From a virus (taxonomy: Duplodnaviria; Heunggongvirae; Uroviricota; Caudoviricetes): 4,765 bases of DNA. Shown piece by piece: positions 1 through 4,765 of the stretch. Below the pieces are notes generated by a model, which was not told the origin of the DNA, ran no database searches, and worked only from the letters and a program-made list of their open reading frames with translations. The stretch lies in the IMG/VR virus record IMGVR_UViG_2534681657_000014. One strand, written 5' to 3'. Position numbers and translations under genes: made by a program. The first letter of the stretch is position 1. Each line of letters opens with the position of its first letter.

Positions 1-75
1 ACCGCTATGCAGCGAACTGCATATTGCCCCGTCAACGTATTACCACTGTCAGCAACAGCGACATCATCCGGATAA

Positions 76-846
76 ACGCAGTGCCCGTGCGCAGCGCGAT
101 ACTGGCTGAAGAAAGAGATACAGCGCGTATACGATGAAAATCACAAGGTATACGGTGTGCGTAAAGTCTGGCGTCAGTTGTTACGGGAAGGTATCAGAGT
201 GGCCAGATGCACTGTGGCACGTCTCATGGCGGTTATGGGACTTGCCGGTGTTCTCCGGGGTAAAAAGGTCCGTACGACCATCAGCCGGAAAGCCGTTGCC
301 GCAGGCGACCGCGTAAACCGTCAGTTCGTGGCAGAACGACCTGACCAGCTGTGGGTGGCTGATTTTACTTACGTCAGCACATGGCGGGGCTTCGTCTATG
401 TGGCGTTCATCATTGATGTGTTTGCCGGATACATCGTGGGGTGGCGGGTCTCATCGTCCATGGAAACGACATTCGTGCTGGATGCACTGGAGCAGGCGTT
501 ATGGGCCCGTCGACCGTCCGGCACGGTCCATCACAGTGATAAAGGTTCTCAGTATGTATCGCTGGCCTACACACAGCGGCTTAAGGAAGCCGGATTACTG
601 GCATCAACAGGAAGTACAGGCGACTCGTATGACAACGCGATGGCGGAGAGCATCAATGGTCTTTACAAAGCGGAGGTAATACACCGTAAGAGCTGGAAAA
701 ACCGTGCAGAAGTGGAACTGGCCACACTCACGTGGGTGGACTGGTATAACAATCGACGATTGCTGGAAAGGCTGGGCCATACTCCTCCGGCAGAAGCAGA
801 AAAAGCTTATTATGCTTCCATCGGAAACGATGATCTGGCAGCCTGA
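76..846 (+). CDS. IS3-family transposase OrfB (DDE/rve integrase core), 5'-partial and apparently frameshifted
   Basis: Frame-1 ORF (ORF track 157..846, GTG start; frame open from 76) reads ...LKKEIQRVYDENHKVYGVRKVWRQLLREGIRVARCTVARLM...DQLWVADFTYV...VHHSDKGSQY...YDNAMAESINGLYKAE..., with candidate DDE residues in ADFTY, HHSDKG and AESING. The expected upstream HTH-like segment PLCSELHIAPSTYYHCQQQRHHPDKRSARAQRD is encoded in frame 2 (nt 2-109) and stops at TGA 110-112, so N-terminal and catalytic parts sit in different frames. Confidence 0.85.
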   Translation, partial: TQCPCAARYWLKKEIQRVYDENHKVYGVRKVWRQLLREGIRVARCTVARLMAVMGLAGVLRGKKVRTTISRKAVAAGDRVNRQFVAERPDQLWVADFTYVSTWRGFVYVAFIIDVFAGYIVGWRVSSSMETTFVLDALEQALWARRPSGTVHHSDKGSQYVSLAYTQRLKEAGLLASTGSTGDSYDNAMAESINGLYKAEVIHRKSWKNRAEVELATLTWVDWYNNRRLLERLGHTPPAEAEKAYYASIGNDDLAA

Positions 847-888
847 GTTCACAGATAAAACACTCTCCAGGAAACCCGGGGCGGTTCA
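847..888 (+). repeat. right terminal inverted repeat region of the IS3-family element
   Basis: Lies between the transposase stop (844-846) and the point where lambda O-homologous sequence resumes (889 onward, ACTTCGGCAGAGG). Ends in ...GGTTCA. The left end is outside the window, so the IR length cannot be confirmed. Confidence 0.5.
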
Positions 889-926
889 ACTTCGGCAGAG
901 GTAACTTTGCCGGACAGGAGCGTAAT

Positions 927-1763
927 GTGGCAGATCTCGATGATGGTTACGCCAGACTATCAAATATGCTGCTTGAGGCTTATTCAGGCGCAGATCTGAC
1001 CAAGCGACAGTTTAAAGTGCTGCTTGCCATTCTGCGTAAAACCTATGGGTGGAATAAACCAATGGACAGAATCACCGATTCTCAACTTAGCGAGATTACA
1101 AAGTTACCTGTCAAACGGTGCAATGAAGCCAAGTTAGAACTCGTCAGAATGAATATTATCAAGCAGCAAGGCGGCATGTTTGGACCAAATAAAAACATCT
1201 CAGAATGGTGTATCCCTCAAAACGAGGGAAAATCCCCTAAAACGAGGGATAAAACATCCCTCAAATTGGGGGATTGCTATCCCTCAAAACAGGGGGACAC
1301 AAAAGACACTATTACAAAAGAAAAAAGAAAAGATTATTCGTCCGAGAATTCTGGCGAATCCTCTGACCAGCCAGAAAACGATCTTTCTGTGGTTAAACCG
1401 GATGCTGCAATTCAGAGCGGCAGTAAGTGGGGAACAGCAGAAGACCTGACCGCCGCAGAGGGGATGTTTGACATGGTGAAGACCATCGCGCCATCAGCCA
1501 GAAAACCGAATTTTGCTGGGTGGGCTAACGATATCCGCCTGATGCGTGAACGTGACGGACGTAACCACCGCGATATGTGTGTGCTTTTCCGCTGGGCCTG
1601 CCAGGACAACTTCTGGTCCGGTAACGTGCTGAGTCCGGCCAAACTCCGCGACAAGTGGACCCAGCTCGAAATCAACCGTAACAAGCAACAGGCTGGCGTG
1701 ACAGCCGGAAAACCAAAACTCGACCTGACAAACACTGACTGGATTTACGGGGTGGATCTATGA
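927..1763 (+). CDS. O: lambda-type replication initiator protein O, N-terminally truncated by the upstream IS insertion
   Basis: The 278-aa translation (VADLDDGYARLSNMLLEAYSGADLTKRQFKVLLAILRKTYGWNKPMDRITDSQLSEITKLPVKRCNEAKLELVRMNIIKQQGG...NTDWIYGVDL) matches lambda O as I recall it from residue ~22 onward. The frame is open back to 834, and 885-926 still encodes FNFGRGNFAGQERN (lambda O residues ~8-21), but there is no ATG. The first usable start is GTG 927, preceded by AGGAG at 916-920. The native start and first ~8 codons are displaced by the IS. Confidence 0.9.
   Translation: MADLDDGYARLSNMLLEAYSGADLTKRQFKVLLAILRKTYGWNKPMDRITDSQLSEITKLPVKRCNEAKLELVRMNIIKQQGGMFGPNKNISEWCIPQNEGKSPKTRDKTSLKLGDCYPSKQGDTKDTITKEKRKDYSSENSGESSDQPENDLSVVKPDAAIQSGSKWGTAEDLTAAEGMFDMVKTIAPSARKPNFAGWANDIRLMRERDGRNHRDMCVLFRWACQDNFWSGNVLSPAKLRDKWTQLEINRNKQQAGVTAGKPKLDLTNTDWIYGVDL
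1213..1297 (+). repeat. ori-lambda iterons (four O-binding repeats, each an internal dyad)
   Basis: Four tandem units inside the O coding sequence: TCCCTCAAAACGAGGGA (1213-1229), TCCCCTAAAACGAGGGA (1233-1249), TCCCTCAAATTGGGGGA (1257-1273), TCCCTCAAAACAGGGGGA (1280-1297). This is the classic ori-lambda iteron arrangement. Confidence 0.88.
1298..1340 (+). other. A/T-rich unwinding segment of the replication origin next to the iterons
   Basis: CACAAAAGACACTATTACAAAAGAAAAAAGAAAAGATTATTCG directly follows iteron 4, as in ori-lambda. Confidence 0.75.
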
Positions 1764-2461
1764 AAAACATCGCCGCACAGATGGTTAACTTTGACCGTGA
1801 GCAGATGCGTCGGATCGCCAACAACATGCCGGAACAGTACGACGAAAAGCCACAGGTACAGCAGGTAGCGCAGATCATCAACGGTGTGTTCAGCCAGTTA
1901 CTGGCAACTTTCCCGGCGAGTCTGGCTAACCGTGACCAGAACGAACTGAACGAAATCCGCCGCCAGTGGGTTCTGGCTTTCCGGGAAAACGGGATCACCA
2001 CAATGGAACAGGTTAACGCAGGAATGCGCGTAGCCCGTCGGCAGAACCGACCATTCCTGCCATCACCCGGGCAGTTTGTTGCATGGTGCCGGGAAGAAGC
2101 ATCCGTTATCGCCGGACTGCCAAACGTCAGCGAGCTGGTTGATATGGTTTACGAGTATTGCCGGAAGCGAGGCCTGTATCCGGATGCGGAGTCTTATCCG
2201 TGGAAATCAAACGCGCACTACTGGCTGGTTACCAACCTGTATCAGAACATGCGGGCCAATGCGCTTACTGATGCGGAATTACGCCGTAAGGCCGCAGATG
2301 AGCTTGTCCATATGACTGCGAGAATTAACCGTGGTGAGGCGATCCCTGAACCAGTAAAACAACTTCCTGTCATGGGCGGTAGACCTCTAAATCGTGCACA
2401 GGCTCTGGCGAAGATCGCAGAAATTAAAGCTAAGTTCGGACTGAAAGGAGCAAGTGTATGA
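1760..2461 (+). CDS. P: lambda-type replication protein P (DnaB helicase loader)
   Basis: The 233-aa ORF (MKNIAAQMVNFDREQMRRIANNMPEQYDEKPQVQQVAQIINGVFSQLL...AEIKAKFGLKGASV) is near-identical to lambda P as recalled. Its ATG overlaps the O stop (ATCTATGA) and its TGA stop overlaps the next ATG (GTATGATGG), the usual lambda coupling. Confidence 0.93.
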   Translation: MKNIAAQMVNFDREQMRRIANNMPEQYDEKPQVQQVAQIINGVFSQLLATFPASLANRDQNELNEIRRQWVLAFRENGITTMEQVNAGMRVARRQNRPFLPSPGQFVAWCREEASVIAGLPNVSELVDMVYEYCRKRGLYPDAESYPWKSNAHYWLVTNLYQNMRANALTDAELRRKAADELVHMTARINRGEAIPEPVKQLPVMGGRPLNRAQALAKIAEIKAKFGLKGASV

Positions 2462-2631
2462 TGGGCAAAGAGGCAATTATTCATTACCTGGGGACGCACA
2501 AGAGCTTCTGTGCGCCGGACGTTGCTGCGACAACAGGTGTGACATTAACCAGCATAAATCAGGCTGCGGCAAAAATGGCGCGGGCAGGAATCCTGGTCAT
2601 TGATGGTAAGGTCTGGCGAACGTTTGTTTAA
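2458..2631 (+). CDS. ren: ren-like ORF, C-terminally truncated (57 codons; lambda Ren is ~96 aa) at a recombination breakpoint
   Basis: Translation MMGKEAIIHYLGTHKSFCAPDVAATTGVTLTSINQAAAKMARAGILVIDGKVWRTFV* follows lambda Ren (MTGKEAIIHYLGTHNSFCAPDVAALTGATVTSINQAAAKMARAGVLVIEGKVWRT...) up to ...KVWRT, then diverges and stops at TAA 2629-2631. Not in the ORF track because it is under 60 codons. Confidence 0.6.
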   Translation: MMGKEAIIHYLGTHKSFCAPDVAATTGVTLTSINQAAAKMARAGILVIDGKVWRTFV

Positions 2632-2777
2632 CGGTTAGCTACTCAGGATGATAGGGCGGGGCAAGTGAGTATGAAGCGGATTTTCAGGAATGCCATCAGA
2701 GTTTGGAAATAAAGTGGGTTTTCTAGTGGCAAGAGACTTGATAATATTTAGTTCTTTGAATCCAAGGAGATAGGGTT

Positions 2778-3272
2778 ATGAGAAAATTTATTTTAGCCTT
2801 TGTTATAAGTGCCTCGTTTACAGCAAATGCTGGTGTAGAGAAGTTAGGGCCGTGGATAACAAAGTCTGAGATAAATAAAATGACTGACCAGACTGACTTT
2901 GTGGCCCTTAATTTATCACCAGATTCATATAACAAAGCAGGTACTGATCGTGCAACTTCACTGGTGTTGCGTTGTAGTGATAACAAAACAGATGCCTATT
3001 TATCATTCAATGATTATATGGGTTCGGACAACCCAAGAATTACAGTGCGGTTAGATGGCGGAAAGCCGGTCAAGAGTGTTTGGGGAGGTGGGGAAGGCGG
3101 TGATTCTGCATTTGCTCCACAACCAATACAATTTATAAAGACCTTGGCTAAGCATAAAAAAGCTATTTTTGGGTTTGAACCTTATGGATCAACTATGCAA
3201 GTAGTTGAGTTTGACTTGTCTGAGATTGATAAGGTTGTGGAAAAAATTTCACAGTCTTGCAATTGGAAATGA
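2778..3272 (+). CDS. hypothetical secreted/periplasmic protein with Sec-type signal peptide; moron-like cargo gene of unknown function
   Basis: 164-aa ORF with RBS AAGGAGA (2764-2770) 7 nt upstream of the ATG. N-terminus MRKFILAFVISASFTANA-G has a basic n-region, hydrophobic core and A-N-A cleavage motif, with no lipobox Cys. Two Cys in the mature part (LRCSD, QSCNWK) and a Gly-rich loop (WGGGEGGD). Markedly AT-rich compared with the flanking O/P genes, and followed by an intrinsic terminator. I do not recognise a homolog. Confidence 0.8.
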   Translation: MRKFILAFVISASFTANAGVEKLGPWITKSEINKMTDQTDFVALNLSPDSYNKAGTDRATSLVLRCSDNKTDAYLSFNDYMGSDNPRITVRLDGGKPVKSVWGGGEGGDSAFAPQPIQFIKTLAKHKKAIFGFEPYGSTMQVVEFDLSEIDKVVEKISQSCNWK

Positions 3273-3288
3273 CAAAAAAATTTCATAT

Positions 3289-3315
3289 GAACCCAGTTTG
3301 CGCTGGGTTTTTTAT
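3289..3315 (+). terminator. intrinsic (Rho-independent) terminator of the secreted-protein gene
   Basis: GAACCCAG-TTTGCG-CTGGGTT followed by TTTTTTATTT: stem CCCAG/CTGGG (3292-3296 / 3303-3307, extendable by A-T pairs), 6-nt loop, T-run 3308-3313, starting 17 nt after the stop codon. Confidence 0.7.
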
Positions 3316-4307
3316 TTCAGTAGCCAATAATGCATTCAAAATCTCTTACTTGAGAAACGGCCTATTTGAGATTTCAGTCGTGGCAGGATGATCAGTTGAT
3401 TCGAGTATTGACGCATTTGCGTTCGGAGCGATTACAGTAGATTGTAAATAATAATGAGAAACACATAGCCACCCCGTGGTATTGAAACCATATAATGTTG
3501 GATTTGAAAACAGATCTTTTCCCATGTATTAATAACTACATCCCCGCGAGTGATTCAAAAAGGAGGGCCCAATTTTGTCCGAGTTTTTGTATTCCCCCGC
3601 ATGCCGCTGCGGAGCACTACATCTGAGTGTCTGACTAGGGGATAAAATTAGACTGGATAGTGAGAAGAAAGTGGCGCGCTAGGCTGTGCCGAGTGCTACC
3701 AGTACACCTTGGGGGTGTGCAGCTTTCGCCGAGACTGTAGTGGGTATCGGTTAATGCACGAAAAACCGAGAGGTCAGACAACCAATTTGCCGTAGGATTG
3801 TTTCCGGTGCGATACCGGTCTACTAACTGAAAGCAATGCGAAAAAGCATAAACTCGGTCCTTCAGTCGCCCTACACACTATTTACTAAGAAGGGCTGAAG
3901 CATGGATACAATTATTACATGGATGGGAGATCGTCTGTTGGGGGGACACAAAAATCCGATCTGCGGCAGATGGCGATCACTGGATTAACTTCCGCGATTT
4001 GTTCAACAATTTTGTACACTGAAAAATTAAAACATGGTGAGCCTATTAACCCAAACGAAGAAGAAAAACTTTATAGGCTTTGGTATGAAGGAAACGCTTG
4101 AAAGAATAAAGCACAATTAAAACCTTTGATTTGCGATAATCAACTTGCCATAATTAAGTAATCGGAGTCTGAACAACTCCGGTGACTTCTGCGCTAAACG
4201 GGGACGTTTATGCGCACATACAATCCAAACTATCTTCTCCTTTCACAGATGCAGAAATGCACCTGCAATTCTTTGCATCTAGCGTTTGACCTCTGCGGAG
4301 GTGAAGC

Positions 4308-4430
4308 GTGAACCTCCCACAAGACGGCATCAAATTACATCGCGGCAACTTCACCGCTATCGGCCAGCAGATCCAGCCTTATCTGGAGGAAGGCAAATGC
4401 TTTGTAAGCGTCAACGGAGCACCGTATTGA
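4308..4430 (+). CDS. short ORF (40 codons) with strong RBS; probably the 5' fragment of a gene interrupted by the IS66-family insertion, with its last 9 codons read from the IS terminus
   Basis: GGAGG (4297-4301) sits 6 nt upstream of GTG 4308. Translation [32 protein letters not shown] then VSVNGAPY*, where the last 9 codons (4404-4430) lie inside the GTAAGCG... terminus of the IS66-type element. No homolog recognised. Confidence 0.3.
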
Positions 4431-4436
4431 CGCTTA
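4404..4436. repeat. IS66-family terminal inverted repeat containing a strong hairpin
   Basis: GTAAGCGTCAACGGAGCACCGTATTGACGCTTA: arms TAAGCGTCAA (4405-4414) and TTGACGCTTA (4427-4436) are perfectly complementary (10 bp), with inner CGG/CCG pairing around an AGCA loop. Followed by TTTATT on the + strand. The transposase stop codon lies within the right arm. Confidence 0.45.
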
Positions 4437-4765
4437 TTTATTGGTGAGTACTACGTTCCATGGCAGGAGTTCGTCAACACGGTTGGAGGGCCATTCCGGC
4501 AGTACGCTCAGAATATGGCGCAGATACGCTTCCGGATCGATACCGTTCAGTCGGCAGGTGCCGATCAGCCCGTACAGCAGTGCTCCACGCTCGCCGCCGT
4601 GATCGCTACCGAAGAACACGTAATTTTTCTTTCCGAGACAGACTGCACGAAGCGCTCTTTCCGCTGTGTTATTGTCCACCTCCGCCAGACCGTCATCACT
4701 GTAATAACAGAGGGCGTCCCACTGATTCAGTACATAGCTGAACGCTTCGCCCAGTCTGGATTTTT
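4434..4765 (-). CDS. IS66-family transposase (TnpC-type), C-terminal part; N-terminus lies beyond the window
   Basis: Minus-strand translation ...KSRLGEAFSYVLNQWDALCYYSDDGLAEVDNNTAERALRAVCLGKKNYVFFGSDHGGERGALLYGLIGTCRLNGIDPEAYLRHILSVLPEWPSNRVDELLPWNVVLTNK* carries the IS66-family signature (DNNxAERALR...LGRKNxLFxGS...GG...LIxTCKLNGIDPxAYL...ELLPWN). The frame stays open to the window edge, so the M at 4679 in the ORF track is an internal GTG, not the true start. Confidence 0.85.
   Translation of the reverse strand, partial: KSRLGEAFSYVLNQWDALCYYSDDGLAEVDNNTAERALRAVCLGKKNYVFFGSDHGGERGALLYGLIGTCRLNGIDPEAYLRHILSVLPEWPSNRVDELLPWNVVLTNK

Follow-up and report, generated by a model that had tools for sequence, protein, structure and literature searches.

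What becomes of the replication of a lambda-like prophage once a transposable element has entered the 5′ end of its O gene? The question is raised by a 4,765-nt stretch of the Caudoviricetes record IMGVR_UViG_2534681657_000014 of IMG/VR (the window, in what follows), in which the coding sequence of a lambda-type O replication protein follows directly on the end of an insertion sequence (IS). We find that the element is a copy of IS629 ending in codon 9 of O, that full-length O is abolished, and that what remains of the gene begins with a candidate internal start shared by divergent O genes.

The IS629 end and its junction with O

The first part of the window, up to and just past the junction, comprises the following features.

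1–888, plus strand: 3′ part of IS629 (IS positions 422–1310 of 1310), in the same orientation as O; 885/889 identity with one gap
1–31, plus strand: 3′ end of the ALIL frameshift pseudoknot of the IS629/IS3411 group (Rfam RF01497), clipped by the window edge
2–109, plus strand: orfB frame ahead of a 1-bp deletion, ending at a premature TGA (107–109); gap at 100/101 relative to two IS629 copies
157–846, plus strand: remainder of orfB (DDE/rve catalytic part) with stop TGA at 844–846, out of frame relative to its own start
849–888: right terminal inverted repeat of IS629, ending ...CCCGGGGCGGTTCA, from comparison of its reverse complement with the IS629 left end
889–926, plus strand: orphaned, startless O coding segment (O nt 26–63, codons 9–21), identical to the O gene of strain 504237

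Window 1–888 aligns end to end and free of rearrangement, at 99.5% identity, with the annotated IS629 of LC567828.1, in which the mobile_element feature (IS3 family IS629) has as its last base the one aligned with window 888. The share of the element inside the window is its 3′ 68%; orfA and the left end lie beyond the window edge. The translation of 157–843 matches the Pfam families rve (E = 4.5e-28), rve_3 and HTH_21, and the right-end repeat agrees with the inverted IS629 left end exactly over the terminal 14 nt and at 25 of the first 26 nt. When tested for TG...CA termini, the right end (...GGGGCGGTTCA at 888) equals the inverted left end (TGAACCGCCCC...) of the reference copies. The preliminary description of this DNA had taken the upstream element for the end of an IS3-family IS, an identification that we can now narrow to IS629, with its terminus exactly at 888. 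At the other edge, the RF01497 match covers model positions 87–117 of 117 and scores under the gathering threshold (25.2 bits, E = 0.0013) because the pseudoknot is truncated there; the same pseudoknot is annotated in complete IS copies.

This copy of the element carries a private 1-bp deletion at window 100/101 (IS629 position 522) that shifts the orfB frame. None of the roughly 11,000 IS629-like places in complete Escherichia coli genomes matched the deletion-spanning 60-mer exactly over its full length, and the copy would be non-autonomous, barring a read error at this position.

The position of the junction follows from comparison with enterotoxigenic E. coli (ETEC) strain 504237 (NZ_CP025862.1), which differs from window 886–4765 by one mismatch over 3,880 nt. 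In that strain O is intact, with 299 codons, and its ATG lies 25 nt ahead of the base equivalent to window 889, so that the right junction lies in codon 9, between O nt 25 and 26; alignment with related O genes, which the preliminary description had proposed as the means of fixing the insertion point, thus settles this side of it. BLAST and megablast homology to phages and E. coli genomes begins at 886, three nucleotides inside the IS end, since the last three letters of the IS, ...TCA, are also those of O nt 23–25. For the same region, the earlier statement that O resumes at 889 holds from codon 9 (O nt 26) onward; the phenylalanine codon at 885–887 is encoded by the IS, and O itself has leucine at residue 8.

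As had been proposed, the start codon and first 8 codons of O are split from the rest by the IS, and the gene's own Shine–Dalgarno sequence is detached along with them, so that full-length O cannot be made. Reading back from O, its frame meets the stop TGA at 831–833, after which there is no ATG, GTG or TTG until GTG 927. The remaining frame is accordingly devoid of ATG within this interval, as had been noted for the frame as a whole, and further 3′ it does contain in-frame ATG codons (M34, M67 and others). RNA folding places a 10-bp hairpin at 891–914, within the orphaned segment.

The other IS629 copies examined are flanked by target duplications of 3 bp each, TTA in E. coli strain MS 119-7 and TAA in LC567828.1. 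The expected left junction of the window's copy is therefore O nt 1–28 followed by TGAACC..., with ACT (O nt 26–28) duplicated; in a simple insertion, ...ATGACAAATACAGCAAAAATACTCAACT is expected to be joined directly to TGAACCGCCCCGGG (the ACT duplication plus the IS629 left end). Simple insertion is the economical reading of the junction. No match to the exact right junction turned up in 5,426 complete E. coli genomes (60-mer), in one-genome-per-species contigs or in metagenome contigs of the Joint Genome Institute (JGI; 31-mer), and no exact-protein record exists for the 278-residue product of the open reading frame (ORF) that follows it. The only one of the 5,426 genomes returned by the junction 60-mer, MS 119-7, proved to have its insertion at a different site, 27 bp away.

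The lost tail and a candidate internal start of O

Three features describe what could still be translated from the truncated gene.

916–929, plus strand: candidate restart, consisting of the Shine–Dalgarno sequence AGGAG (916–920), a 6-nt spacer (cgtaat) and GTG (927–929; O codon 22)
925–999, plus strand: out-of-frame ORF of 24 codons whose ATG at 925 lies 4 nt past the Shine–Dalgarno sequence; present in lambda-type O only (AAT GTG)
927–1763, plus strand: 5′-truncated O ORF of 278 codons (O residues 22–299), with a Pfam Phage_rep_O match (E = 6.4e-36)

The preliminary description placed the approximately 21 residues lost from O in its N-terminal part, taken as the iteron-binding domain. Several kinds of evidence do not support this, the first being the domain boundaries: Phage_rep_O (PF04492) spans residues 1–94 of the truncated protein and covers profile positions 2–95 of 95. 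In the AlphaFold2 model of full-length lambda-type O, built from a 34-sequence alignment, residues 1–23 have a predicted local distance difference test (pLDDT) score below 50 and no secondary structure, and the winged-helix part comprises residues 28–108, which are helix-rich with pLDDT values of 63–92. A sequence search of the PDB returned no solved structure of O. The minimal origin-binding domain is said to comprise residues 19–139, a figure on which no conclusion drawn here rests.

The lost segment does have a published role. Recognition of lambda O by ClpXP needs the N-terminus, N-terminally tagged O is stable, and residues 1–12 (MTNTAKILNFGR) serve as a transferable ClpX signal (PMC7804408). 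The residues lost in the window include MTNTAKILNFGR, which likens the case to lambda O and ClpXP, with the difference that here the signal has been removed genetically by an IS. The cut therefore lies inside the degradation tag, that is, in the disordered tail, and outside the DNA-binding fold.

The tail is nevertheless retained in all 34 aligned enterobacterial homologues, with little or no variation at N3, A5 and E19 (MxNxA...E19), and must therefore be under selection; in the window, a complete O ORF with its own start and conserved tail is not present, codons 1–8 being replaced by IS629. Functional phages can nevertheless swap the tail or do without it. The O protein of Salmonella phage g341c carries a P22-like 16-residue tail fused to lambda O residues 19–299 (99% identity), that of Pseudomonas phage MPK9 has MTNIVQL attached straight to the domain, and that of Caldibacillus phage CBP1 has no tail, starting about 3 residues ahead of the VADLDDGY-equivalent motif. 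The mosaic joint of g341c lies at O residue 19 (L008, 353–700), and a P22-like small ORF upstream comes with the tail; the tail appears to move with the cII–oop side and not with the origin-binding domain.

The GTG at 927 with AGGAG 6 nt upstream, to which the preliminary description had pointed as the only plausible restart, is present, and it is the sole start that retains the conserved domain, yielding O without residues 1–21. How far this start is conserved was assessed in O genes gathered from phage records and from viral and one-genome-per-species contigs, which were anchored on the VADLDDGY motif and reduced to 20 representatives, no two of which exceed 90% nucleotide identity over 174 nt. 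All but one of the 20 have GTG at codon 22; the exception (Providencia, L124) has ATG, and GTT, GTC and GTA are absent. GGAG or GAGG is found 5–9 nt upstream of codon 22 in 19/20 genes, and the codon for E19 is GAG in all of 17. Among 27 conserved degenerate columns within codons 13–65, those of V22 and E19 are the only ones to use a single codon, and at the four-fold degenerate columns G28, A43, T46, V52, A55, T60 and G62 all four codons are found. The background in the same segments is 8 GTG among 53 valine codons and 32 GAG among 67 glutamate codons, and the sequence of the 6-nt spacer between Shine–Dalgarno and GTG is unconstrained across O genes. This synonymous-site pattern at V22 and E19 points to a translation-start signature, rather than to a constraint on the protein or on a DNA site, and suggests that O genes naturally permit initiation at codon 22, giving a short O isoform. 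The restart in the window is thus not a chance occurrence and would probably be functional if mRNA is present.

By RNA folding, the accessibility of the Shine–Dalgarno sequence and GTG is about average, and no meaningful difference was found between the chimeric and wild-type mRNAs; the out-of-frame ATG at 925 is a possible competitor of GTG 927 for ribosomes. The O gene of Cronobacter phage phiES15, annotated to start at the V22-equivalent GTG, was considered as a natural short form and set aside, as an in-frame upstream ATG and tail-like sequence are present. Literature searches for an internal start in O returned nothing specific.

In-frame internal-start pairs are familiar from lambda itself, in S107/S105 and C/Nu3. 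The long and short forms of ClpB (PMC6168691) and of SpaO (PMC13059759) are likewise in-frame internal-start isoforms. The candidate in O resembles such cases in having a Shine–Dalgarno sequence and start inside a longer ORF, in its synonymous-site conservation and in the shorter protein that it would yield, lacking an N-terminal regulatory segment; it differs from them in that, for O, the isoform is a purely sequence-based prediction.

Consequences for the prophage and rival explanations

The remainder of O, the origin and gene P supply further features that bear on the outcome.

1212–1298: four ori-lambda iterons within O, 20-nt direct repeats spaced by 20, 24 and 23 nt
1461, plus strand: T-to-G change replacing Trp200 of O with Gly (W200G), the sole mismatch to 504237 across 886–4765
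1760–2461, plus strand: gene P (Pfam Phage_lambda_P, E = 5e-62); the annotation of relatives names it replication protein P

We favour the explanation that a 1310-bp IS629 inserted in codon 9 of a lambda-type O gene, in the same orientation as O, in a lambda-like prophage. This separates O–ori–P from the pR side by 1.3 kb of IS, and normally regulated prophage replication would be lost, as a further decay step of an already defective prophage; short O (residues 22–299) could be translated from the internal Shine–Dalgarno sequence and GTG, given read-through of the IS. Taken together, these points lead us to infer, with a probability of roughly 0.7, that replication of the prophage is most likely defective, or at the least deregulated, in a lineage where decay was already under way. 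The effect may reach beyond O: the ATG of P overlaps the O stop (ATGA), so that poor O translation may, through inferred coupling, also lower P.

The truncated O is otherwise identical to that of 504237, W200G being the only protein difference, and an A+T-rich stretch (about 1299–1340) directly follows the iterons. Trp200 is invariant in 34 homologues, and the 60-mer around 1461 had no exact counterpart among 2,910 E. coli records. Read errors could account for W200G and the orfB deletion alike, as could relaxed or second-site selection.

Whether short O could be expressed depends on transcription across the IS end. The preliminary description had allowed that the IS might supply outward transcription, for which we find no sequence support: a consensus scan of window 1–1800 recovered no sigma-70-like promoter on either strand, and the junction hexamer TTCAAC, considered as a promoter element, has no −10 partner by eye. 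The only terminator-like hairpin on the plus strand of the window is a weak one at 346–361, the total number being within chance expectation, and a scan of the full IS629-like element of MS 119-7 showed no plus-strand terminator. With no convincing plus-strand terminator, read-through from pR or from an IS promoter is possible. On the minus strand, the same kind of consensus scan applied to MS 119-7 recovered the oop promoter (TTGAGT-17-CATAAT), whose −35 element is the complement of O nt 21–26. This would place the window's IS629 at the upstream edge of the oop promoter, which is expected to be intact to the left of the element, outside the window.

Several points weigh against the favoured explanation. 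Read-through transcription from pR or an IS promoter is possible, as just described, and the conserved internal start together with the intact fold makes a working short O conceivable. The left junction lies outside the window, and we deduce, rather than see, that the insertion is simple and flanked by a 3-bp duplication. The effect of W200G on O is putative, and of the other IS insertions of 504237, ISEc47 alone is seen in the window's prophage.

The alternative that best withstands the evidence, which we still consider unlikely, is a changed but working gene, in which read-through transcripts would be translated from the internal start into O(22–299), a long-lived initiator without the ClpX degron, and replication would possibly be deregulated. 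Of the 20 divergent O genes, 19 have the start that it calls for, and one homologue has ATG at that codon, but here an out-of-frame ATG at 925 would compete for ribosomes. Its expression would be eased by the co-orientation of the IS with O, by the lack of a convincing plus-strand terminator and by an accessibility of the start that matches the wild type, yet the promoter scan of the IS end was empty. The protein would keep the Pfam domain and complete origin-binding and P-binding parts, losing only a disordered tail, but it also carries W200G at an invariant tryptophan, and its ability to initiate replication is predicted. Finally, the N-terminus is required for ClpXP degradation, g341c swaps the tail onto O residues 19–299 and the O protein of CBP1 is tailless; set against this, retention of the tail (N3, A5, E19) in 34 of 34 enterobacterial homologues argues that the long form matters.

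A second, rather improbable alternative is that the junction arose from an IS629-mediated adjacent deletion or from recombination between two IS629 copies, in which case the 5′ end of O, and possibly cII, cro and cI, would be missing or elsewhere. Adjacent deletions that leave IS629 intact are documented (reviewed in PMC9330008), and the left junction is unseen, the absence of the exact junction from all collections leaving no sister sequence for that side. However, no base is missing from the IS end and the flanking DNA begins within O, as for a fresh insertion, the other IS629 copies examined carry plain duplications of 3 bp, and the downstream DNA is collinear with 504237 for 3.9 kb. An assembly or sequencing artefact, with a repeat-induced misjoin at an IS629 copy and read errors for the two private bases, is very hard to credit: the deletion at 100/101 and the T-to-G change at 1461 are each unique among thousands of copies, as errors would be, but the junction lies exactly at the IS terminus, a signature of transposition unlike a random misjoin, and the remaining window is base-perfect against a complete genome.

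Prophage setting and significance

The decaying setting assumed for the insertion of IS629 in O, which the preliminary description had also proposed, is borne out by the nearest relative. The prophage of 504237 lies between ybhC and bioA, the classic lambda attachment region, and carries int, xis, recombination genes, cI/cro/cII, O, P and a full morphogenesis set, together with four lesions: a ren pseudogene, ISEc47 in ybcN, IS100 past the lysis genes and ISCro1 in a tail gene. The junction of ybcN with ISEc47, at window 4403/4404, is common to the window and 504237. In the window (4308–4765), ybcN is cut after about 32 codons by the ISEc47 end (IS66 family), on the minus strand; in strain 602354, ISEc47 is annotated elsewhere within ybcN.

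O itself has been hit more than once. In the sister ETEC strain 602354 (NZ_CP025847.1; L007, 2479–5337), IS100 splits O of the same prophage near codon 70, independently of the event in the window. In MS 119-7 (NZ_CP146653.1; L003, 3722–5031), an IS629-like element, 96% identical to the window's copy and in the same orientation, lies with its TTA duplication between the Shine–Dalgarno sequence and the ATG of O; it precedes the insertion point of the window by 27 bp and separates the −10 element of the oop promoter from oop. These insertions resemble that in the window as independent cases of an IS disabling or uncoupling O in lambda-like prophages. They differ in outcome: the cut at about codon 70 in 602354 lies inside the winged-helix domain and destroys every form of O, and the insertion in MS 119-7 leaves the whole O ORF intact. 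The 27-bp distance between the MS 119-7 and window insertions may mark a local insertion hot spot.

Outside O, IS629 is known as a main driver of prophage diversification, and in lambdoid Shiga toxin (Stx) prophages of E. coli O157:H7 it has targeted roi, lysozyme and methyltransferase genes (PMC4587872). The window shares with those cases the same element (99.5% identity), the splitting of a gene and the setting of diversification and decay (PMC4587872), and differs in its target (O codon 9), its ETEC-like background and its frameshifted IS copy. Literature searches for IS629 in O returned nothing specific.

Several further observations concern the surroundings. In three genomes (NZ_AP045810.1, L002, 5193–6406; MS 196-1; M15), P and ren are separated by an IS3-family element, and the prophage of the NZ_AP045810.1 type is another lambdoid one that has the ren–TagO–ybcN segment in common. 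In the window, P is followed by a ren pseudogene (2458–2726; frameshift and internal stop in relatives) and by a gene for a 164-residue protein (2778–3272) with an N-terminal hydrophobic, signal-peptide-like segment, which RefSeq names TagO and which has a marginal Pfam VasI match (26.7 bits against a 26.5-bit cut-off). A hairpin with a T-run terminator follows at about 3290–3325, and the unit of ren pseudogene and TagO (2458–3330) looks like a moron inserted past the replication genes. The next roughly 600 bp (3330–3900) are without an annotated gene in relatives; for structured RNA in 3300–3900 there was no Rfam match, and the fold z-scores (−0.9 and −0.3) were no better than those of shuffled sequence on both strands. 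Lastly, lambda O with 97–99% identity was found on short or low-coverage contigs assigned to such unrelated taxa as Shewanella, Pseudomonas, Bradyrhizobium, Paenibacillus, Kitasatospora and others (L091–L099, L101–L106 and others), where contamination of the assemblies by lambda DNA is the most likely source.

The insertion is a new instance of a well-known event (PMC4587872), and wider interest attaches only to the conserved internal start. IS629 in codon 9 of O would be one more route to the loss of regulated replication in an E. coli lambda-like prophage, in a gene that has been struck independently by IS elements in related strains, and the truncation can now be re-read as one that loses a degradation tag and keeps the DNA-binding fold. 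It is possible, if doubtful, that lambdoid O genes encode two initiators, a ClpXP-labile full-length O and a long-lived O(22–299) without the ClpX signal. If so, IS629 here, and the separate insertion in MS 119-7, would remove or uncouple the long form only, leaving a short-only gene, and W200G could have arisen as a second-site change that counters harmful, unregulated initiation. There are long-standing reports of a stable fraction of O, to which a short isoform might relate; were the two-initiator hypothesis true, one of the best-studied replication initiators would have an undescribed, protease-resistant isoform.

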